NCBI GenBank assembly: GCA_025455015.1
Contig: JALONI010000003.1
Location: 8,195-72,194 of the forward strand
Direction of reading: 5' to 3'
Length of the DNA: 64,000 nucleotides
Source: Cyclobacteriaceae bacterium
Lineage (GTDB): Bacteria > Bacteroidota > Bacteroidia > Cytophagales > Cyclobacteriaceae
Positions 32,731 to 59,098 of the stretch are shown here, one piece after another; the first letter of the stretch is position 1, and every line of letters starts with the position of its first letter. The notes below the pieces were generated by a model. The model saw only the letters and a program-made list of their open reading frames with translations, was not told the origin of the DNA and ran no database searches. The position numbers and the translations under genes are program-made.

Positions 32731-32764
32731 GTGCGCATCAAATGAAAAAAAATGAAAATGAGGG

Positions 32765-33325: not shown

Positions 33326-33347
33326 GCCTTCGCTTATTTGTGCGCTG

Positions 33348-33386: not shown

Positions 33387-33403
33387 GATTGACAACGAAG
33401 AGG

Positions 33404-34570: not shown

Positions 34571-34716
34571 ACGATCACAATCTTACGATACAAACGCAGA
34601 ACCAGGGCATTTTGATACGGAAAAAACAGGCGGAAAGCACCCTCAGCGGCCGTTCTGCGCACGGGCGCGCCTGAGCGGCATAACTACCACAGAAACCGTT
34701 ATTTTTGCTGCCCGTT

Positions 34717-35499: not shown

Positions 35500-35528
35500 T
35501 GTCAACCTCAACAGCCCGGTGGGCCGCG

Positions 35529-38489: not shown

Positions 38490-38644
38490 GCGCACGGTCG
38501 TAATAAAATAGAAGTGCGAAAATAGCGAAATAAACACCAACTGCCGCCCTCTTTTGGAGGGATGGCCGCGAGCCGTTAAACCGCTATGCGCCAAGGCAGC
38601 AACGCCCCGCTGGCAGCCAAATTGTATCTTTCGCCCGCAATCCA

Positions 38645-39748: not shown

Positions 39749-39750
39749 AA

Positions 39751-39782
39751 CACCGGGCCACGGTTTCAACCGTGGCCCGGTG
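39751..39782. repeat. Perfect 15-bp-arm palindrome, REP-like
   Basis: CACCGGGCCACGGTT-TC-AACCGTGGCCCGGTG between convergent genes. Confidence 0.75.
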
Positions 39783-39806
39783 CCATGCGATCAGCCAAAT
39801 CCGGGC

Positions 39807-41033: not shown

Positions 41034-41179
41034 GGGGGTGGGGAGTTTTTGTGGGGTTAGTCAGAATGAGTTGGCGAAATTAGGAAATGCCGTTGCCCCC
41101 ACCAAATGGGGTGAAGACCGGTTGGTTGAGGACTGGACACGGCCATATTTTTGTTCGTGCCATTTACTATCTTTATCGC

Positions 41180-41410
41180 ATGGAAAGATACCACCATATC
41201 ACATTTGATCAACGTGTGTTGGGCGGGAAACCAATTATCAGGGGGACCCGCGTTAGCGTAGAGCTGATATTGGAGTGGATAGCTTCCGGGGCTTCTGTGG
41301 GAGATATTTGTCAACGCTATCCCCATTTGTCGGAGGAAGCGGTGCGAGAGGCAATACACTACGCAAACGACATTTCGAAAAACGAAATCTTGATCGAATC
41401 AAAAATGTAA
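41180..41410 (+). CDS. DUF433 family protein (putative antitoxin)
   Basis: VLGGKPIIRGTRVSVELIL ... YPHLSEEAVREAIHY; -7 box TATTTTTG at 41145-41152. Confidence 0.9.
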   Translation: MERYHHITFDQRVLGGKPIIRGTRVSVELILEWIASGASVGDICQRYPHLSEEAVREAIHYANDISKNEILIESKM

Positions 41411-41796
41411 TTCAATTTTCTGCATCTCCCATTCTGACGGACGAGAATGTCCCTCCCCAGATTGTCGACTTTGTCCGCTCCGAAGGCTTGATTGTTTCGG
41501 ATGTTTTGAGCTTGGGTAGGCAGGGGGCTAGTGACTTGGAAGTCGCCAACTGGGCCAGAAATCATGGTCATGTTGTTGCGACACAAGATCAGGACTTTGG
41601 GAGATTACTACATCTTACAAAAGAAAAAAATATTGGTGTCGTTTATCTACGGCCTGGGCATTTTGGGTCCGCCATTCATATTTCCTCTTTGAAGAGATTG
41701 CTAGAGATAAACCCCATCCTACACGCCCCATTTATTGTAATAATCCACAATAATGGCTCTACCATCCGGTTAAGGATCCGGAATTCAATAGTGTAG
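41410..41796 (+). CDS. DUF5615/VapC45-like PIN toxin, start codon unclear
   Basis: ILTDENV, SDLEV, ATQDQDFG. No nearby in-frame ATG/GTG/TTG; ATT at 41410 or 41431 or CTG at 41434 are candidates. Confidence 0.7.
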   Translation: MQFSASPILTDENVPPQIVDFVRSEGLIVSDVLSLGRQGASDLEVANWARNHGHVVATQDQDFGRLLHLTKEKNIGVVYLRPGHFGSAIHISSLKRLLEINPILHAPFIVIIHNNGSTIRLRIRNSIV

Positions 41797-41804
41797 AGAC
41801 GCTT

Positions 41805-42629
41805 TCAGTATCCTTCCTCTTTGCTGGGAAAAGCCTTGCGTTTTACATCGCCCACGTAGGTTGTCACCGCTCCGGTAATCACGTTGTGCAAGTCGGCATA
41901 CCTGCGCAAAAAGCGCGGCTTGAATTCCTGCGTGATGCCAAGCATGTCTTGCATGACCAATACTTGCCCGTCCACTTCGGCCCCCGCGCCAATGCCAATG
42001 ACGGGGATGGTGAGCGCTGCCGCGACTTTTTTGGCCAGCTCGGCCGGGATTTTTTCCAGCACCAGGCCAAAGCACCCGCACTCTTGCAGCAGGTGTGCAT
42101 CGTCCAGCAACTGATTGGCCTCGGCCTCTTCTTTGGCGCGCACCGAGTAGGTTCCAAATTTGTAGATCGACTGCGGGGTGAGGCCCAGGTGGCCCATGAC
42201 CGGCACACCCGCGCTGAGGATGCGCAGCACCGAGTCTTTCACTTCATGGCCGCCTTCCAGCTTGACGGCATGCGCGCCTGACTCTTTCATGATGCGGATA
42301 GACGACCGGAGGGCCTCGCCCGAGCTGCCCTGGTAATGTCCAAACGGAATGTCTACCACCACCAGCGCACGCTTCACAGCCTTCACCACCGAGGTGGCGT
42401 GGTAGATCATCTGGTCGAGCGTGATGGGCAAGGTGGTTTCATTGCCGGCCATCACGTTGCTGGCCGAGTCACCCACCAGTATCACATCCACACCTGCTCC
42501 GTCAATGATTTTGGCCATCGAATAATCATACGCGGTAAGCATGGCAATTTTTTCGCCACGCTTTTTCATTTCCTGAAGCTGGTGAGTGGTTACTTTTTTT
42601 TTGATGTCTTGTTGTTTGTGAACGGACAT
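41805..42629 (-). CDS. panB: 3-methyl-2-oxobutanoate hydroxymethyltransferase
   Basis: [37 protein letters not shown]. Confidence 0.96.
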
Positions 42630-42712
42630 GAGAAGGCGTTTTAGAAAAATTGCGTACTCCAAATTCGACATGCCACCGGGTGGTGATCAACCGCTATCCC
42701 CGCAAAGGGCTG

Positions 42713-43222
42713 TTAGGTCAAATACACGGCTGAGTTCTTGCCCAGCACTACCTCCACATGATCTTTTAACGTGGTGGCCAACTCAAACCCCGTGAACGTA
42801 GGCTGCATAGGGTATTGCGAATGGCTTCTGTTCACCAGCACGGCCACTTGTATTTTCTTGATTTCAACGGACAAAAAAGGCCGAAGGGCAAAGGCGAGCG
42901 TTTTGCCGGTGTTTAGCACGTCATCCACCAGCACGATCGCCTTTTTCTTCAGTGTCTTCACCTCCACGTCCAGCACCACCTCCGGTTGCGTGAGGGCCGC
43001 TTTGTCTACCACTACCCGGGCCAGGGACACGGGCCAGGGCGCGATGCCTTTCAATTCCTTTTGGAGCAGACCGGCCAGCACATACCCTTGTCCATCAATG
43101 CCCACCAGCGTTAATTCCTTCACGTCAAAGTTGCTTTCCAGTATTTCAAACGCAATGCGTCTGATTTTTTGATGCACTTGTGTGGCCGACAGGACAGGCG
43201 TTTTTTCCGATACGAGCGTCAT
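42713..43222 (-). CDS. Phosphoribosyltransferase (PyrR-like)
   Basis: IRRIAFEI; PRPP loop VLVDDVLNTGKT. Confidence 0.85.
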   Translation of the reverse strand: MTLVSEKTPVLSATQVHQKIRRIAFEILESNFDVKELTLVGIDGQGYVLAGLLQKELKGIAPWPVSLARVVVDKAALTQPEVVLDVEVKTLKKKAIVLVDDVLNTGKTLAFALRPFLSVEIKKIQVAVLVNRSHSQYPMQPTFTGFELATTLKDHVEVVLGKNSAVYLT

Positions 43223-43689
43223 GACGGGATGGGCACTACTTTGCTGTCTTTGAAAGTCGATAGAATGACCGTGGTCTGCATGTTGTCCACCACCTCAATG
43301 TTGGACATCTCTAACATAAATTGCTGGTAGGTAGGGATGTCGGTACTTACGATTTTGAGGATAAAGTCCGCTTGGCCGGTTACGTGGTGGCACTCGACCA
43401 CTTCATCGATTTTATTGATGGCGGCAATAAATTTTTCAATGTTCTCCTTGTTGTGCCCTTTAAGCGACACAGTCACAAACGTACAGACGCCCATGCCAAT
43501 GCTGGCCATGTCGATAACGGCATGGTAGCTACGGATGACCCCGGCATTTTCAAGCTTTTTCACGCGCTCCAACGTGGGCGCAGGCGATAGCCCGATTTCG
43601 GAGGCTAATTGGGCGTTGGTGATATTGGAGTTGGCTTGCAGGAGTTCCAATATCTTTCGGTCGATGTTATCAAGTTTTACTTGTTTCAC
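43219..43689 (-). CDS. Lrp/AsnC family transcriptional regulator
   Basis: LDNIDRKILELLQ, IGLSPAPTLERVKKLE, CHHVTGQADF; probable GTG start at 43689. Confidence 0.93.
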   Translation of the reverse strand: MKQVKLDNIDRKILELLQANSNITNAQLASEIGLSPAPTLERVKKLENAGVIRSYHAVIDMASIGMGVCTFVTVSLKGHNKENIEKFIAAINKIDEVVECHHVTGQADFILKIVSTDIPTYQQFMLEMSNIEVVDNMQTTVILSTFKDSKVVPIPS

Positions 43690-43844
43690 GGGGTACGGTT
43701 GGGTGTTTGGGGGGGTGATGGATACGTTATCCTTCGGTAAAAATAGAAGAATTTTTCGGTATCCCTTTGCCCGGTTTTCGGCACGGAGGCTACGCCAAAA
43801 AGGGGGATGGTGCGGGCTCGGCAGCGTGTGACCGACCGTTTTTC

Positions 43845-46800
43845 TCACCGGTGTACCACCAGCCGGTGCGTCACCGATTGGCGCAGGTCATGGACACGCA
43901 AAAAATAGATACCGGCCGGAAGTGAGGCAACGGATACCCGCCACTGATTGAAGCCGGCTTGCGCGGGCACCTCTTCGCCCCACAGCCGCTGGCCCTGCGT
44001 GCCAAAACATTCAATTTGCACACGCCCTTCGGCTGACGCGATCATCTCCAATACCACGTCATCTGTGGCCGGGTTGGGATACGGCAACAAGAAAATGGAG
44101 GCAGGCTCCAGGTTGATGCACGCTTGGTTATTGGCTACATCCACATCGTTGGGCACGGCCAGTTCGGCACAGAGGTACTGCGTGCCGGGCAAGAGCTCCG
44201 TGGCCAGCGTGTAGATAGCGGTAGCATCGGGTGCCAGGGTGGCCACAATCGTCTCTTGTATTTTGCTGCCTCCGGCCACGTGCAAAACTACTACCGGATT
44301 AACCAGCGGGATGTTTCCACGGTTGGTGACTGTGATGGATAGTCGCTGGGTGGACGGCTGACTGCCGGGCGTCAATTGAGCGGCCACGGCAAACGCATCG
44401 GGCGCAGCCACCACGGCAAAAATCATTTGTGTACTCACAGACTGGCAGCCGTTGTTGTCTCGGGCGGTCAGCTCAACTGGATAAACTCCTGTTTCTGAAA
44501 ACGTAAACAAGGGTGAAGGCTGCGTGGTGGTACTATTTACGGCATCGTTGAATTGCCATACGTACGAAGTGGCATTGCTCGAAGTATTGGTAAACGCCAC
44601 GTTGAGCGGAGGAGGGCCAATGGTGGGCGTGGCCACAAACGAGGCGGTAGGACCGGGCCCCACCACGATGGATTTGGTGAGCGAATAAATGCACCCGGAC
44701 TGCCGTGTCACGTCCATGCGCACAGGGTAGGAGCCGGTGGCCGCAAAGGCATGCAGTGAGGGGGAGCCGGTGCCCGTGCCTCCATCACCAAAAGTCCAAG
44801 TCCAAGCCGCGGCAGGGTCGGTGCCTCCGGGGTTGGCTTCCTCAAAACGCGCCTCCCGATTAACGCAATTGTTGGTGACGGAAAAATCCAACGCGGGCAA
44901 CACAGGCACCACGACCGCTTTGGTGCGGGTGCCAATACATTGGTTGGGCGCTGTGGCCCGAAGTTGCGCGGTGAAGTTTCCGGGCGTGGAAAAGCGGTGG
45001 GTCGGCTGGCGGACGGTGTATGATGAACTTGCAATGATCCATTGCCAAGCGGTGGTGGTGGACGGGCCGGACTCGGTGAAGACGGTGTTCTGACCGACAC
45101 AGGCAGGCGTCACCGTGAAGTCTACTGTGGGCGAAGGCAAAATCGAAATCATTTTTTCGAAGAAGCCGACACAGCCAACGTTGGTGGTGGTAGTTAAGCG
45201 TACGGTGTAATCGCCTGCTTGTGCATAGGTGTAGGTGGGCAGGGAGCCCGTGCCGGTTCCTGCGCTGGCATCGCCAAATGCCCACACCCATGAACTGATG
45301 TTGCTGTCTGCGGGCGGAGGTGTGGCATCGCGGAACTGAGCCGGGGAGCCGCTGCAGGAGAACGGGGGCAGGTCAAGTGAGAAGTTGGTTTGAGGCACCG
45401 TGCGGATGACGACCGCTGCCGTTTTGCTGTTCACACACCCGTTAGCGCTGGAGGCACTCAGCGTGGCCTGGTAGGTGCCGGGTGTCGTGTACACATGGGT
45501 GGGGCTTGCCGAAGTTGATGCGTTGCCATCGCCAAAGTTCCATGTGTAGGACGTTACACTTCCGGTAGTACCATTGGTAAACACCGTTTGATTGTCTTCG
45601 CAAATGCCAGCGAAGGAAAAGTCGGTGGTCGGTCCGGTTTGTACGGGACCAATGGATTGGCTGTTGCTGTTGGAGCAACCGGGAAGGGAAGTCACTAATT
45701 GGACGGTCTTGGTGCCGGTGGTGGCGAACACCAGCGACAGATCGCGTGTAGAGGCAACAGCGGAGCCATCAACAGACCACTCGTAGACCAGGTTTCCGTC
45801 AAACACATCGGGAGTGGTATTTACAAAGGTCGTTTCGCCCCCCGTGCAAACCAACCCACTCGGTGCGGTGAAGCTGGGTGTTGGGGGATCGTAAATACTG
45901 ATCGCGGACGCGGCAAAATTGCGACAGCCATTGGCCGCCTCCACGCGCAGCGACACCGGGTAAGATCCCGCGGCAGCATAGCTATGGGATGGGTTTGCCA
46001 GAGCGGACACGTTGCCATCGCCAAACGACCAATCAAAACTGACCAAGGGTTGGTTGGACGATAACACAAAATCCACCGGGGTGCTGGTGCAGCGGGTGAG
46101 GTTCACGAAATCCAGCGAAGGTGCGGATAGTGGATCAATCGTGAGGATATGGGTCGTTTCGATCGGTTGCCCAGTTCCGGTGGGCCGTGCAAACAGCGAG
46201 ATCGCGTACGTTCCTGCGGTGTTGTACACCACGGGAGCGGGCGCTTGACCTGCCGTATGGTCAAGGGTGCTGCCGCACGATTGCGGAAAACTAATCCGGT
46301 ACAAGTCGTTGGATTGCCAATTGCTGGTAAAAATGAAATACCGACTCTTATCGCGCACGCCCCGTATCTTCAGGTTCGAGGAGAGAACGCCTTGTGAGCC
46401 CAGGTTGTCGGTCGTGACAACATCGTTTTCGATGTCGGCACCAAAATTCATTCGAAAAAGACTTCCTTGATCGGTACCGACAAAGGTTTTGAATTCGTTG
46501 TTTTCCTTCACGGCCCAAACACCCGCGGCCGAAAAACCTTCCAACGCAGTACTGGTGATGCGCTCAGCCGTTGGGATGGAAAAGAGCGTGGCACCAAAAT
46601 GGAGGCGATAGAGTCGGCCATTGGCCACTGAAACGGCAAAGCCATACCATTGATTGCCAGAGGAGACAAAACTCAAATCGCCCACCGTAGACGCACCCAC
46701 GATGTTGCCGGACTCCAGCACATTCGAAGCACCCGGCAGGCTGGCTAGGTCACTGCCAAAGTTGACGAGCGTGATATTGAATGCATTGGTCAACCCCACC

Positions 46801-48512
46801 ACCCAGCGTGCACCATCGTGTGCTACGTCCACACCTCCGTTGCCAATGGCATCGCCCGCCAAAATGCCGCTGGCGGTGATGCCCGAAGCCGGGCCCGCCA
46901 CGGAAGTTCCAAGTTCCAACCGAATCAGTTTTGAGCCAACGCGGTTGCTGATGAACGCAAAATGACGAGTGCCGTCAAAAACAAGTCGAACGGCTTGCGG
47001 TCCGTTTAGCAGGCCTCCCGGATTTCCCAGGTTGGTGACAGTTGGGGCACTATTGTTCAAGTCGGCCCCGAAATCCAGACGGAAAATCGAGTTGCCCAAG
47101 AGGTTGCAATAAAACCCGTACCACCTTCCGTTCTCGAACGCAAAGTCCATGCCCACGATCACATTGCCCCCCGCACTGCTTAGATTGAAAAACTGCGCAG
47201 CGTTCGGGTTTCGTTCCAAATCGCCTTGGCAAAAATCCCACTCAAACCCGGTGGCGTTCACCGAAGTGTTCGTCAAGGGGATACGCTCGCCCAGGCATCC
47301 TTCCGCGGCCGCGGAAAACGAAACCGTGGGTTGCGCCAGCAAAGAAGCAACGCCTACCAGAACAAAGAGGGCGGTTACGAAGACGCGTGCGTGGGTCAGC
47401 GCTTGGTCATAGACCTTTTTGAGTCGCAGCGAGGTGTTTTCAAGACTGAAACGTTCCGTCACATCTTTCTTTCCATCGGTAGCCAAGCGTTGTTGCAGCG
47501 ATTCGTCCAGAGCCAAGGTTACCATGGCATTGGCCATCGCAGGTACATCCTTATTCGGCACGAGTATCCCTGTTTCCATGTGTTTGACAATTTCGCCCGG
47601 CCCCCCGCAGTCAGTGGCGATCAACGGCCGTGCAAAGAAAAGAGCCTCCAAGCAAACGATTGAGAATGACTCCGACTCCGAGAAGTTCAAAATAATCTGT
47701 GATTGCTTATATTCTGTTTCCACGTCTTTGGTAAACCCCCGCCAAGTAACTTTTGACGCAATGCCCGCCCTCTCCGCCATGCGTTGAAGTCGTACTAAAT
47801 AATCTCTGTTTTTCGCTTGGCCTAAATCGCCCCCCACAAATGTCAGTCGCCACCCGGGCAGCTGGTCATGTACCTGGGCGAAGGCACGCAAGGCGAAGTG
47901 CTGGCCCTTTCCCTCGGTGTAGTTGGCCAAGTACAAGAAACTGGGGTTCTCAGGCCGCGAGGTGATCTGGGCAAGTTGTTCGCGGGCCGGCAACTCATTG
48001 TAAATAACATCAATGGCGTGACTGGCAGGCAGTTGGTTGACAACGCTATGAGATACAGCCACCATCCGAAAGGCATATCGGTTGTGCAACCCCAGCCAGA
48101 AGCGAAAAAGCCAACGCGGGAACTTCGCGGGCAAAAAGCGAATGTGGCAAACATACGGTATCCGAGAGCCCGTCAGCCGCAGCATGACGGGCAAGAGGTT
48201 GTAGAGGTCGTTTACATGAATGATATCCGCTTTTTCCTGGCGGACTATCTTTCTCAGTCGATAAGCATTGATGATCAACACGGGCCAGTAGGCTAGGAGG
48301 TCCATCGGTCTCCGGCTCAGTTCGCGCATGGGTAGTGTGTGTACCCGCGAAAATCCGTGTGCATACACATGCCGTGTTCCTTCGGCTGGGCGTGGCATCA
48401 CAAATACGAATTCGAAGTGTGCCCGCAGGTCTTCGGCCGTCCGTAAAATGGATTTCAGCGCGCCCGTCAGGCCTTGGCTGTTTTCGATGACTAGTATGAC
48501 CGGCTTGCGCAT
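43845..48512 (-). CDS. In-frame fusion: GT4 glycosyltransferase + internal signal peptide + propeller-like domain + PKD repeats + CARDB-like domain + T9SS type A CTD
   Basis: N-terminal GT-B (SQGLTGA, ESFSIVCLEA, ATDCGGPGEI); ARVFVTALFVLVGVASLLA-Q; about 8 PKD units (WSFGDG); CTD PYPNPA...LPAGIYFLRV. Confidence 0.85.
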   Translation of the reverse strand: MRKPVILVIENSQGLTGALKSILRTAEDLRAHFEFVFVMPRPAEGTRHVYAHGFSRVHTLPMRELSRRPMDLLAYWPVLIINAYRLRKIVRQEKADIIHVNDLYNLLPVMLRLTGSRIPYVCHIRFLPAKFPRWLFRFWLGLHNRYAFRMVAVSHSVVNQLPASHAIDVIYNELPAREQLAQITSRPENPSFLYLANYTEGKGQHFALRAFAQVHDQLPGWRLTFVGGDLGQAKNRDYLVRLQRMAERAGIASKVTWRGFTKDVETEYKQSQIILNFSESESFSIVCLEALFFARPLIATDCGGPGEIVKHMETGILVPNKDVPAMANAMVTLALDESLQQRLATDGKKDVTERFSLENTSLRLKKVYDQALTHARVFVTALFVLVGVASLLAQPTVSFSAAAEGCLGERIPLTNTSVNATGFEWDFCQGDLERNPNAAQFFNLSSAGGNVIVGMDFAFENGRWYGFYCNLLGNSIFRLDFGADLNNSAPTVTNLGNPGGLLNGPQAVRLVFDGTRHFAFISNRVGSKLIRLELGTSVAGPASGITASGILAGDAIGNGGVDVAHDGARWVVGLTNAFNITLVNFGSDLASLPGASNVLESGNIVGASTVGDLSFVSSGNQWYGFAVSVANGRLYRLHFGATLFSIPTAERITSTALEGFSAAGVWAVKENNEFKTFVGTDQGSLFRMNFGADIENDVVTTDNLGSQGVLSSNLKIRGVRDKSRYFIFTSNWQSNDLYRISFPQSCGSTLDHTAGQAPAPVVYNTAGTYAISLFARPTGTGQPIETTHILTIDPLSAPSLDFVNLTRCTSTPVDFVLSSNQPLVSFDWSFGDGNVSALANPSHSYAAAGSYPVSLRVEAANGCRNFAASAISIYDPPTPSFTAPSGLVCTGGETTFVNTTPDVFDGNLVYEWSVDGSAVASTRDLSLVFATTGTKTVQLVTSLPGCSNSNSQSIGPVQTGPTTDFSFAGICEDNQTVFTNGTTGSVTSYTWNFGDGNASTSASPTHVYTTPGTYQATLSASSANGCVNSKTAAVVIRTVPQTNFSLDLPPFSCSGSPAQFRDATPPPADSNISSWVWAFGDASAGTGTGSLPTYTYAQAGDYTVRLTTTTNVGCVGFFEKMISILPSPTVDFTVTPACVGQNTVFTESGPSTTTAWQWIIASSSYTVRQPTHRFSTPGNFTAQLRATAPNQCIGTRTKAVVVPVLPALDFSVTNNCVNREARFEEANPGGTDPAAAWTWTFGDGGTGTGSPSLHAFAATGSYPVRMDVTRQSGCIYSLTKSIVVGPGPTASFVATPTIGPPPLNVAFTNTSSNATSYVWQFNDAVNSTTTQPSPLFTFSETGVYPVELTARDNNGCQSVSTQMIFAVVAAPDAFAVAAQLTPGSQPSTQRLSITVTNRGNIPLVNPVVVLHVAGGSKIQETIVATLAPDATAIYTLATELLPGTQYLCAELAVPNDVDVANNQACINLEPASIFLLPYPNPATDDVVLEMIASAEGRVQIECFGTQGQRLWGEEVPAQAGFNQWRVSVASLPAGIYFLRVHDLRQSVTHRLVVHR

Positions 48513-48572
48513 GGGGGTAGAAAAGCAAGCGAAAGATAGACAACCGCGGGCATACCAACGCAGCGGCAAGAG

Positions 48573-49781
48573 TCAGAGGGCAGACAGGCAAGAGGCTACT
48601 TCGCTTCGCCATTTTTGCACAGAGAGGGCAAGCGTAAAATCCTGGCTGCGAAGCTGCGCGCGTGATCCTCGTGCCGCTCGCCCCTCGTTCACCAGCCGGT
48701 CAATAGCCCAGGCCCACCAGCGTTGTTCGTCAGTTGCCGATAGATGCGGGGCAACCAAGTAACCATAAGGCGTTTCAAGCACCGCATCAAACGGCTCCTG
48801 GCGGGGGTTCAGTATTTCTTGCGGGCCATAAGGGCAATTGCGCGCCACCACCGGAAGCCCGCACGTCATGGCCTCAATCAGGGCCATGGGAAAACCCTCG
48901 AACAGAGAAGGAAACAAAAAAACGCTGCCTTGTTGCAGAAACACGAATGGATTGTCTTGGTATCCCATAAAAAAAACAGACTGACTGGCGCGCGGTGTCT
49001 CGGTCGTGCGCGCATCGTAAAAATCAAGGTGGAGCAAAGCCGCCAGCTCTGTCAACCGATCCATCTCCGGGCCAGAGCCAATCAGAACCAAGTGATACTT
49101 TTGCTGCCAGGCCGGATCGGCAAAAAGACTAATCAGTAGCCGATGATTTTTTTCGGGGGCAAGTCTTCCATGCGTGATGAGCACGGGCTTTTCGAACAGG
49201 GGGGCCGTGTGTGCGGGAAGGGCTTGGTTGGCGCTGGCGCGGATGACATTGAGGTCGGTGCCGTTTTCGATCACACACAACCGATCCGGACGGAGGCCGT
49301 AGTCACTCAGCAATTCGTTTTTTATTCCCTCGGATACGGCAATGAGGCGATCGGCCCGTTGGTACAACGCAGGAATCAGCAGGCGTTTTCGAACCCACCC
49401 CAGCCAGCCAGCAATGGCCTGATCATGGCTTTTTGAACCGTGGATGCATAAAACCACCTTCTCCGACCGGGCCGACAAAATATTTACATAGTCGGCTCCT
49501 TCCAAATGGCTGATGGCGATGTCAATGGCCAACTCCCTTTTCAGTTGACGGAGGCGGAGGACGCGTTTGACGAAGTTGACGGCTTTTGAGAACCACGTGG
49601 TGCCGGCCGGCACTTCGAGCGACCGTATCGGATTGCCCGTGGGGTAGGCGTGGCCAAAGTCAAAATTGAAAACACATTCAATCACCTCGTACTCCGTGGC
49701 TAGCGCGATGGCCACCTCGTGGAAGACGCGCTGCGCTCCGCCAAAGCCCGCGTTGGGTATGATCATGAGTACTTTCTTCAT
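48573..49781 (-). CDS. Glycosyltransferase family 4
   Basis: GFGGAQRV, GRLAPEKN, EGFPMALIEAM. Confidence 0.92.
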   Translation of the reverse strand: MKKVLMIIPNAGFGGAQRVFHEVAIALATEYEVIECVFNFDFGHAYPTGNPIRSLEVPAGTTWFSKAVNFVKRVLRLRQLKRELAIDIAISHLEGADYVNILSARSEKVVLCIHGSKSHDQAIAGWLGWVRKRLLIPALYQRADRLIAVSEGIKNELLSDYGLRPDRLCVIENGTDLNVIRASANQALPAHTAPLFEKPVLITHGRLAPEKNHRLLISLFADPAWQQKYHLVLIGSGPEMDRLTELAALLHLDFYDARTTETPRASQSVFFMGYQDNPFVFLQQGSVFLFPSLFEGFPMALIEAMTCGLPVVARNCPYGPQEILNPRQEPFDAVLETPYGYLVAPHLSATDEQRWWAWAIDRLVNEGRAARGSRAQLRSQDFTLALSVQKWRSEVASCLSAL

Positions 49782-50671
49782 CGCCAGGCAATCTTTTTTA
49801 GAACGGCCCAAAAACGTTTTCGCGTCAGTACCCATAGAGATGAGGTGGCAGCCCGCCACGCATAGTGGCGCGCGCGTTTTTTGTTTTTTGAACTGGCAAA
49901 AGCCAGCGCTACAAACGAATAGCGGTCGGCCCGAAATAAGTTGATCGCGTGTGTGCCATAGCGTTCGGTGAAGGCCGGATGCTGCGCTACCCAATCGGCA
50001 AAAAAAACATCGCGGATTTCAACTTTTTCGGGCGCCAACTGAAACAGGCTTCGGGCGGGGTGCTGCACCATCGAAAACGTGGGTTCGTTCAGCTCGATAA
50101 AGGGGTGTTGGGTGTGTATGCGTAACCAAAGCTCCCAGTCTTCGGCCGTGATCAAGGCCCGGTCTTCGCGAAAGGGAAACTCAAGCGCCACTTGACGTTG
50201 AAGAAAGACAGCGTTAGCAGCCAGAAAGTTGTTGAATAAAAGTGCGCGGGTGAAGGTACCCTTGCCCCGCTCCATCCGTCCCATCCGTACGCCCGCCTCA
50301 TCGATGAAACGATAGTGACTGAAAACGACCGTGGGCTGTTGCCTTTGGTGGATAAAGGCGTGTACCCGTTCCAACCGGTCGGCATCCATCACATCATCAC
50401 TGTCGAAAAAATTGACGTACGTCCCCGTTGCCAGCCGCGTTCCCGTATTTCGCGCTACGGCCCGCTCTTGGTTGCGCTGAGCATGATAGATGATGGGGTT
50501 GTTGGCCAGACAGTGGCTGATCGCCTCCCCCGTGCCATCGGTACTTCCATCATCTACAATGATCAGCTCGAAGTCGCGAAACGTTTGCGACAACACCGAA
50601 CTAACCAGCCGCAGCAGTTGGTCTTTGCGGTTATAGGTTGGAACAATGATCGAAAAAAACGGGCGGTTCAT
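49778..50671 (-). CDS. Glycosyltransferase family 2
   Basis: SIIVPTYN, VDDGSTD, FFDSDD, EDWELWLR. Confidence 0.93.
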   Translation of the reverse strand: MNRPFFSIIVPTYNRKDQLLRLVSSVLSQTFRDFELIIVDDGSTDGTGEAISHCLANNPIIYHAQRNQERAVARNTGTRLATGTYVNFFDSDDVMDADRLERVHAFIHQRQQPTVVFSHYRFIDEAGVRMGRMERGKGTFTRALLFNNFLAANAVFLQRQVALEFPFREDRALITAEDWELWLRIHTQHPFIELNEPTFSMVQHPARSLFQLAPEKVEIRDVFFADWVAQHPAFTERYGTHAINLFRADRYSFVALAFASSKNKKRARHYAWRAATSSLWVLTRKRFWAVLKKIAWR

Positions 50672-50686
50672 GACAAGTGTACAAAG

Positions 50687-51532
50687 CTAAAACTGAATGG
50701 CTTTGTTTAGCGCACCCAGGCACTCAAAAAGAAAGGTGTACACCCGCCCATACGTGCGCACCATAAAATGATGAAGATTATCGCGCAGTAGTTTATTTTT
50801 TTGTTCGTTAAGTTGCTGATTGGTAGCACTGCCGGAGAAGTGATGGATGACAACGATACGCGGATCGTAGTAGATTTTCCGGCCGTGTTTATGTAGTTGG
50901 TAGCACCATTCCAGGTCTTCCTGATACATGAAATAGGTTTCGGGGAGTTTCCGGCCGGGAAATATCTTCAGCAGATCGCTGGAGAAACAAAAGAAGGTTC
51001 CCCAAATCCAATCCGGATAGACAGGCGAGAGGTGATCAAAAAAGCCACCCAACAGCCACCGGCCACGGGCGTGCTTGGAGAGCAACTTCTGAAGGCGGAA
51101 CAACTCAGCTAATTGAAGCGAAAGCGAAGGAAACCGGCCGCACTGAGGCTGTACTTCGCCTGAAGGGTACACCAGCTTGCCCGTAACTACCGCCACTCCT
51201 TCGCGCTGTTTGTGGCGCAGCAACTGATGCGCGTGCCCAATGGCATTGTCGATCAACTCGGTGTCGCTGTTCAGCAAGAGCAGGGTGCCGCCCTGCGCAG
51301 CCGCCAGGCCGCGATTGTTGCCTTTGGCAAAGCCTTCGTTGCTTTGACTCTTGAGCAGTATGACTGAGGGAAACCGTTGGGTGAACGCTTCTGCGGGGCA
51401 CTCGGTCGAAGCGTTGTCCACCAGGATCACCTCAAAAGAGACACCGGTGGTATGCCGGTAAATTGACTCCAAACAGGCACAGGTAAGTGCATACGTGTTG
51501 TAATTGACAATAATGATCGAAACCTCAATCAT
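50687..51532 (-). CDS. Glycosyltransferase family 2 (rhamnosyltransferase-like)
   Basis: SIIIVNYN, VDNAS, GFAKGNN, LLNSD, FMYQED. Confidence 0.92.
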   Translation of the reverse strand: MIEVSIIIVNYNTYALTCACLESIYRHTTGVSFEVILVDNASTECPAEAFTQRFPSVILLKSQSNEGFAKGNNRGLAAAQGGTLLLLNSDTELIDNAIGHAHQLLRHKQREGVAVVTGKLVYPSGEVQPQCGRFPSLSLQLAELFRLQKLLSKHARGRWLLGGFFDHLSPVYPDWIWGTFFCFSSDLLKIFPGRKLPETYFMYQEDLEWCYQLHKHGRKIYYDPRIVVIHHFSGSATNQQLNEQKNKLLRDNLHHFMVRTYGRVYTFLFECLGALNKAIQF

Positions 51533-52682
51533 GCGTGTGCGGCTCGATGATTTGATACCAATAGGCCTGCCCGGTCTTTTCGAAATGGAAAGCTTGGGCA
51601 ATGGTTTTTGCTCGTTGGCTCAATTTACCCCGCTCGGAGGGATTTTGGGCCAGGCGTACGATGGCGTTTGCTACTTCGGATATGCGCGCGTGGCCTCGCT
51701 CATCTACGTCAATCAACAGGCCGCCCGGCCCGCCCGGCAAGTCGACCACCTCGGGTATGGCTCCCACCCGCGTGGCAATGACCGGTTTGCCCAGCCGGAA
51801 AAAGTCGAGCAAGGCAATGCCAAAAGCTTCGTAATGGCGTGAGAGTACCAGCCCCACATTTACGTGTTGGAGCACCGCTTGGGGGGCCGTTATGCGGCCG
51901 TGAAAAATCATGGAGTGCTCGTGCGCGAATTCCTGTCGCAGCGCGGCCAGCTCGGGGCCATCACCAACGAAATGCAGTTCAAGGGCCGGCACGGATTTTC
52001 GGGCTTGCACGAAAGCCTCTGCCGCTTCACGCCATCCTTTGTAGGCAACACCCCGGCCAATCATGCCCAACCGGAAGGCCGTTCCTTCTTCGCGTTTGGC
52101 TGCCAGGGGCTCATGGGTTGCTTGCCACCCATTGTAGATAACGCGGGACGGGACACCCCACTTTTCCGCAATGGTGGCCTGACACCAGCGCGACACCGAG
52201 ACCACGCGGTGTGCCTGCACGAGGGCACTGGTGTCAATCGGTGTTTTGTCCACTGCGGCATAGCTGTACTCGCCATGCTCCACCACCCAATGAGGCACCG
52301 CATTGTGGGCGCGGTAGCGGTGACAGAACAAATCGGCATCAAGCGAGTTGGAGATAACCACCTTCACTTTTTTGGCGCGGATGAGATACCGGAAGTAGTG
52401 CGCGGTGAGTCTGTCTTTCAGATTTGGCAGGCCCATGCGCGCAGCCACCGCATTAGCCTTCCAAAAAAAATAATCTAGCCAGCGCCCCCGGAAAAGAGAC
52501 GCCACGCGAATACCGCGCGACCGAAGTGTGGCATAGTAGGCGCGATCCCACGTGCTGAAAACGGGAAAGAGGCATGCAGCCACGCCTTTTTTGTTCAGGT
52601 AGTCGCACAGGTCGGCTGCGAATGTTTCCGCACCGCCAATTTGGATCGACCAAACCACCACCAAAACCACCGGCTTACGCAT
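51525..52682 (-). CDS. Glycosyltransferase family 4
   Basis: IGGAE, GRGVAYKG, EAFGIALLD, VGAIPEVV. Confidence 0.9.
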   Translation of the reverse strand: MRKPVVLVVVWSIQIGGAETFAADLCDYLNKKGVAACLFPVFSTWDRAYYATLRSRGIRVASLFRGRWLDYFFWKANAVAARMGLPNLKDRLTAHYFRYLIRAKKVKVVISNSLDADLFCHRYRAHNAVPHWVVEHGEYSYAAVDKTPIDTSALVQAHRVVSVSRWCQATIAEKWGVPSRVIYNGWQATHEPLAAKREEGTAFRLGMIGRGVAYKGWREAAEAFVQARKSVPALELHFVGDGPELAALRQEFAHEHSMIFHGRITAPQAVLQHVNVGLVLSRHYEAFGIALLDFFRLGKPVIATRVGAIPEVVDLPGGPGGLLIDVDERGHARISEVANAIVRLAQNPSERGKLSQRAKTIAQAFHFEKTGQAYWYQIIEPHTHD

Positions 52683-53850
52683 GGATCAAGCGGTTATAGA
52701 GCGAACAGTATTGGTCAACACATGTTTCCATCCGAAATCGCAGCGTGGCTTGACTGGCCGCTTGGCTGTGCTGGGCGTACAGTGCTTCGTTCAGAACATA
52801 CCGTTCCATGGCCTCTGCCAAATCTACGGAGCGCGGCTCTTTTTCGGCCGTTAGCGGCAGCAACTGACCGCAGGTGCCCGAAGGCGCATGAACAATCTCG
52901 GGGATACCACCCAGTTCGCTGGCGATCACCGGCTTGTTGGCCAGCAGGTACTCGATCACGGTGGTGGGTAATCCTTCGTAGTAACACGAAGGGGCCAACC
53001 CCACATCCATTGCCTCAATGTAGTCGCCCACGAGCGGTGTTTCTTCGACCAGGTGTATGTTCGTTTCAGTTATGGAGAGGCCGTTCTGCCGGAGAAACGC
53101 TTTCGTGACTCCCACCAAAATCAAGTGTGTCGTTCGCTTTGTTCGGGTTTGAAAACTCAGGAAGGCCTCCACGGCAAGGTGCCAACCTTTCTGCCGAGAC
53201 GCGCGCCCCACCATCCCAAAAACAAAAGCATCACTGCCTATGCCCAACGCTGCACGGGCAGCGTAACCGGCTGTTTGGGTGGCTTTTGCCACACCGTTGT
53301 AAATAACCTCTACGGGGGCCGTGAGTAGCGAGGCTTCCTCCGTCAACCACTTTTTTCCCGCGTATGACACCGATACAATGGTTGATACCTGCCGCAAAAA
53401 TGGCTGAAGGGAAAAATTTGGCTGTTGGGCCCAATAGGCAATTTCGTTGTGGTCGGTAAACACCACTTTTTTTGCAGGGGAGAACTTCGCCATGCGCAGA
53501 TGATCGGCATACGCGCTGTGGCTGTGAATGACATCGATACGATACCACCAAACACAAAAGGCAAAAAACCCATTGGTACACATTTTATGAATGTGAGTCG
53601 GCCCGCCAAGGGCCGCGGAAAGCGCGTTTACCTTCCATGCCACGAAGTTGAGGATTGGTACTGTATGCAGGGAGCGTAGGGTAATGCCGGGTAGCCGCGC
53701 CATCTTTTTGTGCAGCGAGGCCCCCCGGGGGTTGCTTTCGACAAATACGATGACCCGATGGCCGCGCTTGGCAAGTTCGCTGGCCAGGTTGCTGACCATT
53801 ACCTCGGTGCCACCCAGTTGCAACGACCATGTGGACAACAGGATATTCAT
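52675..53850 (-). CDS. Glycosyltransferase family 4
   Basis: LGGTE, GRASRQKG, EGLPTTVIE, GGIPEIV. Confidence 0.9.
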   Translation of the reverse strand: MNILLSTWSLQLGGTEVMVSNLASELAKRGHRVIVFVESNPRGASLHKKMARLPGITLRSLHTVPILNFVAWKVNALSAALGGPTHIHKMCTNGFFAFCVWWYRIDVIHSHSAYADHLRMAKFSPAKKVVFTDHNEIAYWAQQPNFSLQPFLRQVSTIVSVSYAGKKWLTEEASLLTAPVEVIYNGVAKATQTAGYAARAALGIGSDAFVFGMVGRASRQKGWHLAVEAFLSFQTRTKRTTHLILVGVTKAFLRQNGLSITETNIHLVEETPLVGDYIEAMDVGLAPSCYYEGLPTTVIEYLLANKPVIASELGGIPEIVHAPSGTCGQLLPLTAEKEPRSVDLAEAMERYVLNEALYAQHSQAASQATLRFRMETCVDQYCSLYNRLIHA

Positions 53851-53852
53851 GG

Positions 53853-54641
53853 CTACCGGCCCTCGTTTGGTGCGGCCGTTCGCTTCTCGCCCATCAGAAT
53901 AAACACACTGGCATCTTCCGCGGGTCCCTCAATCGGCCGTATCACAAAGTCTTCTGCTACGGTGGCATCTGTGATGTCCGATAAAAAATTCACCACCGGT
54001 TTTCCCAACAGTCGTTTGATGGCATTCTTCACCCGCATATAGGGTGTAGACTGAATGGTAAAGTGCAACTCCAGAATATTTTTTTTTAAGTACTGAAACC
54101 GCTGGAAGGGAAGGCTTTCGTCTTGTCGATAGTGGCCTGTGATGTGAAAATACCGGGAAAACACTTCGCGAAATTCGGTCAGTGTCAGTTCGTTCACATG
54201 AAAGGGGTTGTGGATACCTTGCGCTGAAAACTTTTGCTTGTTGGGTGTACTGCAGAGGAGGCTGCCCCCGGGCTTTAGCAACCGGCTCATTTTCTCCAGA
54301 AAATCGCCTGGTTCGGGCAGGTGTTCCAACGTTTCGAAGCTCACGATCAAGTCGTACAGTGGTTGGTCAGCGGCCAGGGCTCGATAGTCGCTCTGCACAA
54401 ATTCAATGGAGCGGCTATAGTTTTTTTTCGCAAAGGTGATGGCCTCTTCGGAGATATCAACACCGCACACCCGGGTGGCGCCCAACTGGTGGATAATCGC
54501 GGAGCCGTAGCCAACGCCACAAGCAATATCCAAGACAGACTTGCCCGCGTAGTGTGCACCAAAATAATGGTAGCGTTGCAAATGGTCGGCACTGTACTTT
54601 TCCCATGCCAAGGTACCGGGTGTCAATCGTTCTTCGGCCAT
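53853..54641 (-). CDS. Class I SAM-dependent methyltransferase (putative glycan O-methyltransferase)
   Basis: HLQRY, LDIACGVGYG, SFETLEH, STPN, NPFHVNEL. Confidence 0.9.
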   Translation of the reverse strand: MAEERLTPGTLAWEKYSADHLQRYHYFGAHYAGKSVLDIACGVGYGSAIIHQLGATRVCGVDISEEAITFAKKNYSRSIEFVQSDYRALAADQPLYDLIVSFETLEHLPEPGDFLEKMSRLLKPGGSLLCSTPNKQKFSAQGIHNPFHVNELTLTEFREVFSRYFHITGHYRQDESLPFQRFQYLKKNILELHFTIQSTPYMRVKNAIKRLLGKPVVNFLSDITDATVAEDFVIRPIEGPAEDASVFILMGEKRTAAPNEGR

Positions 54642-54644
54642 ACG

Positions 54645-55850
54645 TTAGTTGGTCAGCGTAAATTGTACGGGCCACCACAGGTAAGAGGCTTTGCGCGGAG
54701 GCGTTTTCTTGGTGCCCCAAAGGTCGCGCTCTTTTACCTCAAACGTAGCCGCCTGCTCGATAATGTGGGTATCGGATTTTTCATCTCCGAAAAACAACGA
54801 CACCGTGTATTTACCCTCCATCAGGGGAACGGCTCCCAACTGGCACGTAATGGTGCCGGTGGTGCCTCTGAATGTTTCTTGTCCGTCTTTTTGGTAGCGG
54901 TTGTTGGCATTGATCAGCTTTGTGCCATCTATTGAGCTCACCACCATCCCCAAACACGGGTGAATTTCCTTTTCGCTCACATACGTGGCCCGAAGGACAA
55001 TGGATTCGCCAAAGTAGTAAACGGGCTCTTGGCGGTCGGCAAACGTGAGCGTGTCCAGCCATGCGTGCGCATCCAGCGGTTTTGGGAGTTTGATTTCCGT
55101 CTGCGATACCAAATTGCGCGAGTTGTACTGCTCAATGACATCGGCCACCGGCCCGGCAAAAATGTGTTGTCCGCCTTCCAAGAGTACCGCCCGGTCGCAG
55201 AGATTTTCAACGGCCGCCATGTTGTGGCTTACGAACAAGATGGTACGCCCGCTTTTGCTCACATCTTCCATTTTGCCCAGGCACTTTTTCTGGAATTCTG
55301 CATCGCCCACAGCCAGTACTTCGTCAATGATCAAAATTTCAGGCTCCAAAAAGGCGGCCACGGCAAAAGCCAGACGTAATTGCATGCCGCTCGAGTAATG
55401 CTTCAGCGGAGTATCCAAAAACTTCTCCACCCCGCTAAACGCCACGATCTCATCAAACTTTTGTTCGATTTCTTTTCGCTTCATGCCCAGCAGCGAACCG
55501 TTCAGGAAAACATTTTCGCGACCGGTCAGTTCGGGGTGAAAGCCCGTACCCACTTCCAGCAAGCTGGCAATGCGTCCGCGCGACACAATGCGCCCCGTGG
55601 TGGGTGGGGTGATCTTGGACAGTATCTTCAACAGTGTGGATTTGCCGGCCCCATTTCGCCCAATAATCCCCATCGATTCGCCCGGCATCACGCTAAAAGA
55701 CACCTCGCGCAGCGCCCAAAAATCTTCGGCTTCCGTTTTGTCAAATGAAAACGTGTGCCACAACCGCTCGCGAAAGCTCAAGTACGGACCCGCCCGGTGG
55801 CTGATGCGGTACTTCTTGCCTACATGGTCCACTTCCAGAATCGGCTTCAT
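54645..55850 (-). CDS. wzt: Polysaccharide ABC exporter ATPase with C-terminal carbohydrate-binding domain
   Basis: GRNGAGKST, GFHPELTGREN, YSSGMQLRLAF, DEVLAVGD, plus an extra about 150 aa Wzt-C-like domain. Confidence 0.93.
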   Translation of the reverse strand: MKPILEVDHVGKKYRISHRAGPYLSFRERLWHTFSFDKTEAEDFWALREVSFSVMPGESMGIIGRNGAGKSTLLKILSKITPPTTGRIVSRGRIASLLEVGTGFHPELTGRENVFLNGSLLGMKRKEIEQKFDEIVAFSGVEKFLDTPLKHYSSGMQLRLAFAVAAFLEPEILIIDEVLAVGDAEFQKKCLGKMEDVSKSGRTILFVSHNMAAVENLCDRAVLLEGGQHIFAGPVADVIEQYNSRNLVSQTEIKLPKPLDAHAWLDTLTFADRQEPVYYFGESIVLRATYVSEKEIHPCLGMVVSSIDGTKLINANNRYQKDGQETFRGTTGTITCQLGAVPLMEGKYTVSLFFGDEKSDTHIIEQAATFEVKERDLWGTKKTPPRKASYLWWPVQFTLTN

Positions 55851-56677
55851 CACGCAAAGTCGGCAAAAAAGTCTTCGGTGCGCTTGAAGTAAACAGCGCC
55901 TATGAGCAGAAAAATGACATTGGCACCCAAGCTGATCGCCACCAGCCAGCCATCGTGCCACTGGCCGGTAAGCGGGTACCGAAACAGTTCCACCACCGCA
56001 TACATGGGCGACAGCGCCAACGCGTATTGCAGCGCGGGCACGTCAATCAACGTGATGGGATAGATGACGGGCGTCAAAAAAAATAACACTTGAACCAAGA
56101 AAGGGATCACATACCGGAAGTCGCGGTACTTGACATTCAAAGCCGACAGCCACACACCCAGCCCCAACGTAGCCAACGCGCCCACCAGAATACACATGGG
56201 CCAAACAAGCACGGCCCACCAGAAAACCGGTTGCTGGTATGCGATCAGCAACAGCGCAAACAAGACAAACCCCATGAGCGTGTCAAACAAGGCTACTAAA
56301 ATGGAGGAGATCGGGATGACCAAGCGGGGGAAATAAATTTTTTTGATAATGGGGGCGTTGCTGACCATGCTGTTGGCCGCGCTGGTGAGGCCTGACGAAA
56401 ACAAGTTCCAAACCAACAGCCCCGAGAACACATAAATGGGGTAGGGCAGGTTGCCCGAGGGGATGTTCAGCGCACGGCCAAAAAAGAACGTGAAGATCAC
56501 CATCATCAGCAGCGGTTGAAGAATGGCCCACAAAAAGCCGAGCACCGTTTGTTTGTACTTGATTTTGATGTCGCGCCACGTAAAAAAGAAAAACAGTTCG
56601 CGGTACCGCCACAATTCACTGAAATGAAAAACCCCACGCCTGGACGCATCAATGGTAAACTCGGTCGGTTCGGGCAT
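55850..56677 (-). CDS. wzm: Polysaccharide ABC exporter permease
   Basis: RDIKIKYKQTVLGFLWAILQP, KKIYFPR, LNVKYRDF. Confidence 0.93.
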   Translation of the reverse strand: MPEPTEFTIDASRRGVFHFSELWRYRELFFFFTWRDIKIKYKQTVLGFLWAILQPLLMMVIFTFFFGRALNIPSGNLPYPIYVFSGLLVWNLFSSGLTSAANSMVSNAPIIKKIYFPRLVIPISSILVALFDTLMGFVLFALLLIAYQQPVFWWAVLVWPMCILVGALATLGLGVWLSALNVKYRDFRYVIPFLVQVLFFLTPVIYPITLIDVPALQYALALSPMYAVVELFRYPLTGQWHDGWLVAISLGANVIFLLIGAVYFKRTEDFFADFA

Positions 56678-56730
56678 AAAGTACGGGCGCAGAGGTTCGC
56701 CCCAAATTGCGACTTTTGCACAAAAATAAG

Positions 56731-57813
56731 ATGAAAATCCTATTTCTGGCACCCTATCCCCAAAATCAGGCTCCCTCGCAGCGATTTCGCTTTGAACAGT
56801 ACTTGCCCGTACTTTCCCAACAAGGCCATTACTGGGAGTTTCATGGGTTTTTGGACTCGGCTTCGTGGCGTATTTTGTTTGTGCGAGGTAAGGCACTGCG
56901 CAAGGCCATGGGGGTAATGGAGGGTTTTCTGAGGCGGAGTTTGCTATTGACTCGCTTACATGCGTTTGATGCGGTATTCCTGCACCGCGAAGCGGCTCCT
57001 TTGGGGCCACCCGTTTTTGAGTGGATCATAGCAAAGGTTTGGCGCAAGCCGCTGATTTATGATTTTGATGATGCCATTTGGCTGCCGGACAACATCCAAG
57101 AAGGGAGGGCTATGCGGTGGCTGAAATACCGCAGTAAAGTGGCGCTCATTTGCCGTTGGAGCCGGGCCGTTAGTGCGGGCAATGACTACCTGGCCGCCTT
57201 TGCCAGGCAGCATGCTCCCCGGGTGGTGGTAAACCCCACCACCATTGATACCGAACAAATGCACAACCCGGCTCACTTCCGCAACGCTGACAACCGCCCC
57301 GGCCGTGTAGTGATCGGCTGGACCGGCTCGCACTCCACGCTCAAGTACTTGAAAGGGATGGAGCCGGTTTTGAAACAATTGTCCGACACCTATGCGCACG
57401 TCCACTTTTTATTTATTGCCGACCAGCCTCCTTCGCTCGCGTTGCCGCGCACCACGTTTGTCCCTTGGTCGTTGGAGACCGAGATCAGCGCCTTGGCTGC
57501 GATAGACATCGGCATCATGCCCTTGCCTGACGATGCGTGGGCCAACGGGAAGTGCGGGTTCAAAGCACTGCAATACATGGCCTTGGAAAAAGCGGCCGTA
57601 GTCTCGCCCGTGGGCGTAAATACAACCATCGTGACGGATGGTTCTAACGGGCTGCTTGCCGCCACGCCCGAGCAGTGGCACCGCGCCCTGGAACAATTGA
57701 TTCAAGACCCCGCGTTGCGCCAACGCCTCGGCCAAGCGGGCAGGCTGCGGGTACAACGCGCCTATTCAGTTGTTTCGAATACCGAGCGGTTTCTCTCTTT
57801 GTTCGACAAATAG
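56731..57813 (+). CDS. Glycosyltransferase family 4
   Basis: APSQRFRF, YDFDDAIW, GWTGS, KCGFKALQYMA, SPVGVN; divergent from wzm. Confidence 0.9.
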   Translation: MKILFLAPYPQNQAPSQRFRFEQYLPVLSQQGHYWEFHGFLDSASWRILFVRGKALRKAMGVMEGFLRRSLLLTRLHAFDAVFLHREAAPLGPPVFEWIIAKVWRKPLIYDFDDAIWLPDNIQEGRAMRWLKYRSKVALICRWSRAVSAGNDYLAAFARQHAPRVVVNPTTIDTEQMHNPAHFRNADNRPGRVVIGWTGSHSTLKYLKGMEPVLKQLSDTYAHVHFLFIADQPPSLALPRTTFVPWSLETEISALAAIDIGIMPLPDDAWANGKCGFKALQYMALEKAAVVSPVGVNTTIVTDGSNGLLAATPEQWHRALEQLIQDPALRQRLGQAGRLRVQRAYSVVSNTERFLSLFDK

Positions 57814-59093: not shown

Positions 59094-59098
59094 ACCGG

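Follow-up and report, generated by a model that had tools for sequence, protein, structure and literature searches.

A probable micro-indel fusion of a glycosyltransferase gene with the gene of a type IX secretion cargo in a Cyclobacteriaceae bacterium

How did a cytoplasmic enzyme come to share one reading frame with a protein destined for export, and does the joined chain work as a polyprotein? The question is raised by an open reading frame (ORF) at 43845..48512, on the minus strand of a 64,000-nucleotide stretch of contig JALONI010000003.1 from a Cyclobacteriaceae bacterium (the whole of this stretch is called the window here). The frame encodes a glycosyltransferase of the GT4 family, an internal segment resembling a signal peptide, and a large protein, called here the cargo, with propeller and PKD regions and a type A C-terminal domain (CTD) of the type IX secretion system (T9SS). 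An earlier note, made from the sequence alone, had taken this arrangement for a polyprotein whose cleavage fixes a 1:1 production of both parts. The present analysis leads to another answer. The fused frame is real DNA, and comparison of the junction with that of relatives makes it highly probable that a micro-indel, in this lineage only, joined two genes which had been separate and translationally coupled in the ancestor, and that the fusion is a tolerated accident.

The fused frame and its junction

The minus-strand frame is open end to end, as a single frame, over 43845..48569. Its start was placed at the ATG at 48512 because MRKPVILVIENS of the window aligns with MTKPRILIIENS of the stand-alone orthologous GT4. 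The ORF thus comprises 1555 amino acids (aa) plus the stop codon at 43845-43847 and contains no internal stop. Residues 1-371 (47400..48512) form a complete GT4 glycosyltransferase (Pfam Glyco_transf_4 / Glycos_transf_1), with PF13439/PF13579 at residues 17-172 and PF00534/PF13692 at residues 180-349. Both Rossmann-like halves of the GT-B fold are present, and the NCBIfam GT4 profiles are matched through their final positions, at residues 372-373, so that the family profile is covered to its C-terminal end.

At the junction, the chain reads Y368 D Q A371 L372 (CTG, 47399-47397) T H A R376 VFVTALFVLVGVASLLA393, followed by Q394 PTVSF. There is no in-frame stop, as the earlier note had stated, and no ATG, GTG or TTG occurs in frame from the GT4 end to the hydrophobic core. 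The four letters CTGA at 47396..47399 (minus strand) appear to be the remnant of an NTGA stop/start overlap: CTG 47399-47397 would sit at the old cargo start codon, and TGA 47398-47396 would have ended the GT4 before it fell out of frame. The window itself therefore lacks the 4-nucleotide (4-nt) NTGA overlap of a coupled gene pair, since it has CTGA with the TGA outside the GT4 frame; the base that may have been inserted is the C at 47399.

Residues 372-393 (47334..47399, minus strand) show the layout of a signal peptide, with an n-region (L)THAR, an h-region VFVTALFVLVGVASLL and a c-region ending in LLA, and the predicted signal peptidase I (SPase I) site lies at A393/Q394 (47334/47333). When this segment is aligned with the N-termini of seven stand-alone cargo homologues, their Met-1 falls at most two residues from L372, and the Gln at +1 is invariant in all eight aligned sequences, as are one Phe and one Cys. 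Because of this alignment of Met-1 and Gln, we take codon 372 to be the former start codon and residues 372-393 to be the former signal peptide; judged on the alignment, the hydrophobic stretch inside the fused chain once served as a true Sec/SPase I signal peptide. SPase I substrates of Bacteroidota follow a Q-rule, which the LLA|Q c-region fits (PMC5837995, PMC10653852), and the other elements of such a peptide are in place (R376, VFVTALFVLVGVASLL, A393 at -1 and Q394 at +1). The segment has a Kyte-Doolittle mean of 2.24 over 19 aa, the highest among the aligned set, an uncharged run of 16-17 residues and a positive residue, R376, and its hydrophobicity is compatible with a membrane span. 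An N-terminal Sec signal, which the homologues do have, is missing from the window cargo, in which the segment is internal and no canonical start precedes it.

The contigs of two sequencing runs contain the junction (Logan contigs): run X1 (2023, depth 43) and run X2 (2020, wetland, depth 9.6), which come from different studies. Over 46900-47900, both contigs, which were built independently, show 0 substitutions and 0 gaps relative to the window; this is what became of the check for a stop or indel at the junction that the earlier note had proposed at the level of reads. Over 40000-59999, X2 is identical to the window and is probably its source sample, whereas X1 differs at 28 positions, all within 48997-57292 and none of them an indel; X1 is therefore a separate data set. 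Both are identical to the window over 20000-39999. Between X1 and X2, 0 differences were found over 29 kb (20000-48996), and the two strains are near-clonal. No run besides X1 and X2 spans the junction: the fragments from X3 (151-260 bp, depth 2) miss it. The site itself, GCGCTGA, is not a homopolymer. Because the contigs of two runs agree exactly, the fused frame is real DNA and not an assembly error.

The micro-ORF ATG ACC AAG CGC TGA, which the earlier note had placed at 47410-47396, is indeed present out of frame (47396..47410, minus strand) and is probably a chance by-product. At 47415-47421 (minus strand), 15 nt upstream of the junction, C-AAA-AAG is reminiscent of the dnaX type of slippery site for -1 slips. 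Three codons on, the -1 frame meets a TGA (47409-47407), which overlaps the ATG of the micro-ORF. Such a slip, if used, would yield a stand-alone GT4 ending in ...LKKGL; the resemblance is probably due to chance.

Downstream of the signal-peptide segment, the cargo starts with a lead-in that contains a Cys and continues as a beta-propeller (residues 394-741, 46290..47333). The fold was predicted by AlphaFold2 with a predicted local distance difference test (pLDDT) of 85.2 and a predicted template modelling (pTM) score of 0.83. A Pfam search with these residues gave no family and Foldseek returned propellers only, the best of them generic, at a template modelling score of about 0.55, so the propeller of the earlier note was borne out while deriving a function from the fold was rejected. 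Among the phmmer matches listed (search described below), the propeller module recurs internally, around residues 750-1150, in many proteins of 1900-3400 aa, and it is, as far as these sequences indicate, a widespread unnamed module without a Pfam family. The PKD region follows at about residues 742-1370 (44403..46289, borders approximate), with six stretches of PKD_4 (Pfam, E 3.9e-73). Residues about 1371-1477 (44082..44402) are conserved among homologues and have no Pfam match at E<=0.01; the label 'CARDB-like' given to them earlier found no support there. At its extreme C-terminus the chain ends in the type A T9SS sorting domain (residues 1478-1553, 43854..44081), matched by Por_Secre_tail PF18962 (E 1.9e-8; 34.9 bits against a cut-off of 27) and by TIGR04183 (34.1 bits against a cut-off of 23). 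The T9SS machinery is encoded in the same genome (GldM_1st, 77 bits; SprA_N, 486 bits). The GT4 and cargo genes are each single-copy in this genome, and the 4.7 kb ORF carries no secondary lesions. The sequence and the Pfam and NCBIfam matches agree here with the architecture first described for the frame.

Two genes at the junction in relatives

A cargo homologue was found in 20 of the 24 same-genus genomes, and its frame, where the contig holds the whole gene, has about 1180-1230 aa, the size of the window cargo part alone. In genomes G001, G003 and G008 and at three loci of G015, the gene immediately before the cargo, in the same orientation, is an orthologous GT4 (38-44% identity, frames of 377-409 aa). 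In G001 the GT4 ends in ...YDLALKTK* and its stop overlaps the cargo start as aaATGAaa; in G008 it ends in ...LYDSLFL* and the overlap is ttATGAta. Short gaps separate the two genes in G003 and G015. Other genes take the upstream position in G002, with a GTGA overlap, and in G023, where an epimerase-like gene is followed by a 6-nt gap.

The two closest cargo homologues from metagenomes, L031 and L032, belong to fully syntenic loci (GT4, cargo, AsnC, phosphoribosyltransferase, PanB). L032, from a Joint Genome Institute (JGI) metagenome, is the closest syntenic locus: its stand-alone GT4 of 377 aa is 53% identical to that of the window (full length, 369 aa), its cargo 37%, and the GT4 ends in ...QYDSILRV* with a gtATGAtt overlap. 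In L031, the junction reads TGA ct ATG GCG CAC GCT AGG, with a 2-nt spacer, and the cargo starts with M-A-H-A-R, compared with CTG ACC CAC GCA CGC and L-T-H-A-R in the window. The GT4 of L031 was considered as an orthologue and rejected (E 0.59); the corresponding place in this locus is occupied by a different GT4.

The unfused GT4-cargo pairs (L032, G001, G008, G003 and G015) thus share with the window the proteins, their order and strand, a cargo signal peptide (N-terminal in the pairs) followed by Gln, a junction placed within a few bases, a variable glycan cluster upstream, and AsnC, phosphoribosyltransferase and PanB downstream. They differ from it in having a stop and a start, where the window has one base more or two fewer and encodes one chain. 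In all relatives examined, the sequences show a pair of distinct genes, and in most cases a 4-nt overlap couples the pair.

No other fusion was recovered. A junction-centred, word-indexed search of 5.8 billion proteins gave full coverage by the window's own protein only. A phmmer search with residues 150-800 against 1.84 billion representatives yielded, among the best 150 matches, only cargo-type or GT4-type proteins and no GT4-cargo fusion. JGI metagenome contigs were scanned for closer relatives and for an un-inserted allele: of 241 matches to a protein pattern none was confirmed, and the exact pattern of the junction, in which the extra base could be present or absent, matched nowhere. These scans may not cover records near-identical to the window genome, which makes their negatives weak. 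One candidate, P0119 (745 aa, two matching stretches), was rejected as a fused relative since it is a tandem GT4-GT4 protein: both of its copies belong to one GT4 subfamily and match the window GT4 at 34% and 31% identity. Fusions of neighbouring genes are found elsewhere in this GT4 family, too.

A fused architecture conserved among relatives, as an evolved polyprotein would have, was thus not seen. Judging from these searches, the fusion appears unique to one near-clonal lineage and may be very young, and the architecture (cytoplasmic GT4, internal signal peptide, T9SS cargo) was not found elsewhere. The 1:1 polyprotein of the earlier note finds no backing in the comparison, since relatives have two genes, mostly 4-nt coupled, while the fusion is limited to a near-clonal lineage. 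The fusion recurs in no relative examined, and relatives carrying two genes, the first half of what the note had itself named as refuting its proposal (the other half being ribosome initiation at about 47399), are what was found. What stands of that proposal is the real fused frame, with the X1 and X2 contigs, and the internal former signal peptide, with the alignment; what lacks support is design or selection as a polyprotein, the relatives being unfused.

Origin of the fusion and fate of the fused chain

The window junction can be returned to a two-gene layout by one change. Deletion of the C at 47399 converts ...CAA GCG CTG ACC CAC... into CAA GCG TGA, giving a GT4 of 371 aa that ends in KKVYDQA*, and the same deletion produces a cargo frame that starts GTG ACC CAC GCA CGC (M-THARVFVTALFVLVGVASLLA|Q), 22 codons before Q394, with a 4-nt GTGA overlap. 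Of the 46 single-base deletions around the junction, that at 47399 alone brings back a stop together with a canonical start ahead of the hydrophobic core. It had been argued earlier that two genes would need two changes or an overlap of about 50 codons; this single deletion contradicts the argument. A 2-nt deletion directly before an ancestral ATGA yields the present sequence equally well, and in general the two frames become one through any shift of +1 or -2 that falls between the TGA and the conserved Y-D in the GT4 tail. An alternative cargo start, the ATG at 47410 (MTKR...), was rejected: it needs an added base, and the GT4 would then run about 50 codons into the cargo. Codon 372 is preferred because it aligns with the homologue Met-1 and with MAHAR of P0009.

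Within the genome, 136 of the 350 TGA stops preceded by A (39%) open a downstream frame of at least 150 codons, compared with about 9% for those preceded by C, G or T, and the ATGA overlap is a routine junction type here. Among the coupled junctions of prokaryotes in general, the -4 nt overlap occurs most often (PMC10666635). We propose that in the ancestor the TGA stop of the GT4 and the NTG start of the cargo shared 4 nt, an overlap still present in relatives. A micro-indel that shifted the frame within the last GT4 codons would then have put the TGA out of frame and the GT4 in frame with the cargo, and would at the same time have turned the cargo start codon into CTG. The simplest versions are a C inserted at 47399 into GTGA, or a 2-nt loss just before ATGA; as far as the sequence goes, the +1 insertion and the -2 deletion are equally acceptable and not distinguishable. 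The event is of a known kind, the fusion of adjacent overlapping genes by a micro-indel. The GeneTack survey describes singleton frame transitions and fused or split neighbouring genes in prokaryotes (PMC3711429), and such cases, like the pairs with a -4 nt overlap (PMC10666635), resemble the window in that micro-indels in or close to stop/start overlaps merge or split frames. The usual fusion of adjacent genes joins two cytoplasmic proteins, whereas the window joins a cytoplasmic enzyme to a Sec/T9SS substrate, which is unusual.

With the stop gone, ribosomes would read through the junction and make one 1555-aa chain, and most of the cargo is expected within this chain because CTG initiates translation poorly. 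The former signal peptide (R376, hydrophobic core, LLA|Q) would emerge behind a folded, cytoplasmic GT4 and most likely insert in SecYEG as an N-in/C-out signal anchor, after which signal peptidase I would probably cut behind A393. The expected products are a GT4 that keeps 22 residues as a membrane tail, and a cargo close to its native form, which would begin with (pyro)Gln and be exported through the T9SS. Cleavage after A393 is mechanistically reasonable because of the signal-peptide alignment, the invariant +1 Gln and the T9SS type of the cargo, whose genome also encodes GldM and SprA. The membrane tail would be a plausible location for a GT4 acting on lipid-linked intermediates of the adjacent Wzm/Wzt-type pathway. 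That the chain is made, inserted at SecYEG and cleaved after A393, and thus operates as a working natural polyprotein, we put forward as a tentative reading, a little short of an even chance; insertion with cleavage is nevertheless the single most likely of the outcomes that we would predict. If the chain is made and cleaved, proteomics should find the peptides VYDQALTHAR or semi-tryptic VFVTALFVLVGVASLLA, and a cargo N-terminus of pyroGlu-QPTVSFSAAAEGC...

Two known arrangements may be compared with this predicted outcome. In Bradyrhizobium japonicum, the cytochrome b/c1 precursor FbcH is reportedly a polyprotein that is split at an internal signal peptide, as is said to have been shown experimentally (Thony-Meyer et al., about 1989-1991). 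It would share with the window one ORF, an internal Sec-type signal and a proposed signal-peptidase cleavage into two functional proteins. The window differs from it in that the fusion is a singleton, its N-terminal part is a soluble cytoplasmic enzyme rather than a polytopic membrane protein, and cleavage is predicted. Type II bitopic proteins of the inner membrane, of the ToxR/CadC or RseA type, have a large cytoplasmic N-domain and an anchor that SPase I does not cut. An uncleaved window chain would presumably look like them, with a cytoplasmic domain, a positive residue, one span and a large periplasmic part; their anchors have evolved as such, whereas the window span would be a recent former signal peptide with an intact A-x-A-like site and a Gln at +1.

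Several points weigh against an accidental micro-indel fusion that is tolerated and processed as just described. In this genome, GTGA overlaps (22/246) are no more frequent than the CTGA baseline, so a GTG-start ancestor is not specially favoured, and GTGA as a favoured overlap type was rejected. The closest relative is only 37-53% identical, so that the ancestral junction is a reconstruction and not an observation in a sister strain. The contigs of X1 and X2 give a consensus only, and a minority un-fused allele may be hidden behind it; the two strains are near-clonal, and the persistence of the fusion says little about its tolerance. A folded N-terminal domain of 371 aa might impair targeting. 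Finally, the fusion might just as well have abolished function, synthesis, insertion and cleavage all being read from the sequence.

This last point is the likeliest of the alternatives. Under it, the buried signal peptide would be poorly targeted or cleaved, the cargo and perhaps the GT4 would be inactivated, and the frame would still be open only because so little time has passed since the mutation. Inactivating variation often strikes glycan loci and surface proteins, and a singleton fusion in a near-clonal lineage, the lost canonical start codon and a recombination-like tract of single-nucleotide polymorphisms (SNPs) immediately upstream are all in line with such a nascent lesion. Set against these are a hydrophobic segment of transmembrane grade, the frequency of bitopic N-in/C-out proteins with large cytoplasmic N-domains, the lack of secondary lesions in the 4.7 kb ORF, and an allele that forms the consensus of both samples, collected with about three years between them. 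We hold loss of function to be unlikely, though still a serious contender. A polyprotein maintained by selection, in which co-translation and SPase I cleavage would fix a 1:1 ratio of membrane-anchored GT4 to glycan-carrying T9SS cargo, is improbable. Both halves are intact and single-copy, the junction is common to the two sampled strains, and the GT4-cargo pair is conserved and usually 4-nt coupled in relatives, which suggests that coupled production matters; that coupling, by termination-reinitiation at the overlap, however already links the output of both genes without a fusion. Moreover, the fusion is unique among the best 150 matches from 1.84 billion representatives, two genes are retained in all relatives examined, the closest syntenic ones included, several of these relatives have another gene and not the orthologous GT4 upstream of the cargo, and the near-clonal carriers leave persistence under selection unsupported.

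Two further explanations would keep two proteins in the cell. Recoding would provide them through a -1 slip on C-AAA-AAG (stop TGA 47409-47407) or through initiation at CTG 47399, possibly aided by the micro-ORF. The dnaX-like AAA-AAG 15 nt upstream, the -1-frame stop three codons later and the overlap of the micro-ORF stop with the CTG fit this idea, but the slippery motif is imperfect (C instead of A at its first position), CTG is a very weak start codon, and such features can arise by chance within 40 nt, which leaves recoding highly improbable. An extra base introduced by sequencing or assembly, in an organism that really has two genes, is hardly credible: one base less does give a perfect two-gene layout and the genome is a metagenome-assembled genome of 154 contigs, yet data sets from different studies and years agree exactly at the junction, at depths of 43 and 9.6, and GCGCTGA offers no homopolymer. 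Apart from processing and loss of function, the remaining probability lies with partial or mixed outcomes, artefact and recoding.

To return to the micro-indel fusion and its predicted processing, the latter, if it takes place, would mean that a Sec signal peptide still works behind a folded cytoplasmic enzyme of 371 residues, that one micro-indel at a 4-nt overlap can create a cytoplasmic-to-secreted polyprotein, and that such an allele can survive in the wild. The locus would then be a de novo polyprotein of a glycosyltransferase and a secreted protein, caught at birth. There is also a lesson for annotation: where a long ORF joins a cytoplasmic to an exported protein, the junctions of relatives should be compared first, a comparison that here reduced an exotic-looking architecture to a simple, datable mutation.

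The glycan locus around the fusion

Upstream of the fused ORF and co-directional with it, a glycan cluster at 48573..57010 (minus strand) encodes Wzm, Wzt (with Wzt_C), a methyltransferase, and GT4, GT4, GT2, GT2 and GT4 glycosyltransferases. Downstream lies an Lrp/AsnC regulator (43219..43848, minus strand, given as the longest ORF, the true start being probably later), a flank conserved in all syntenic relatives, in which the order cargo-AsnC-phosphoribosyltransferase-PanB is kept.

The 28 differences of X1 are confined to an 8.3-kb block, 48997-57292, which covers the Wzm/Wzt/methyltransferase/glycosyltransferase cluster, while the flanking 29 kb have 0. Inside well-supported gene bodies these changes are mostly synonymous. 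The block looks like a recombination tract in the surface-glycan locus between otherwise clonal strains. The longest ORF for Wzm (ABC-2; 55850-57010, minus strand) begins about 135 codons before the domain, and five apparently 'non-synonymous' differences cluster in its codons 21-75, which suggests that the true start of Wzm lies further downstream and that this stretch is non-coding.

The cargo is found, without exception, at the 3' end of a variable glycan locus in L015, L014, L013, L031 and L032 as well as in the window (41805-48512), and conserved genes for AsnC, phosphoribosyltransferase and PanB come after it. The gene upstream of it varies between an orthologous GT4, an unrelated GT4, a UDP-sugar epimerase/decarboxylase-like gene and a GDP-fucose synthase gene, often with a 4-nt overlap, and this suggests that the cargo is co-expressed with whichever glycan its locus makes. 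The placement of the cargo at the 3' end of variable glycan loci is a finding separate from the fusion and the more general lead.

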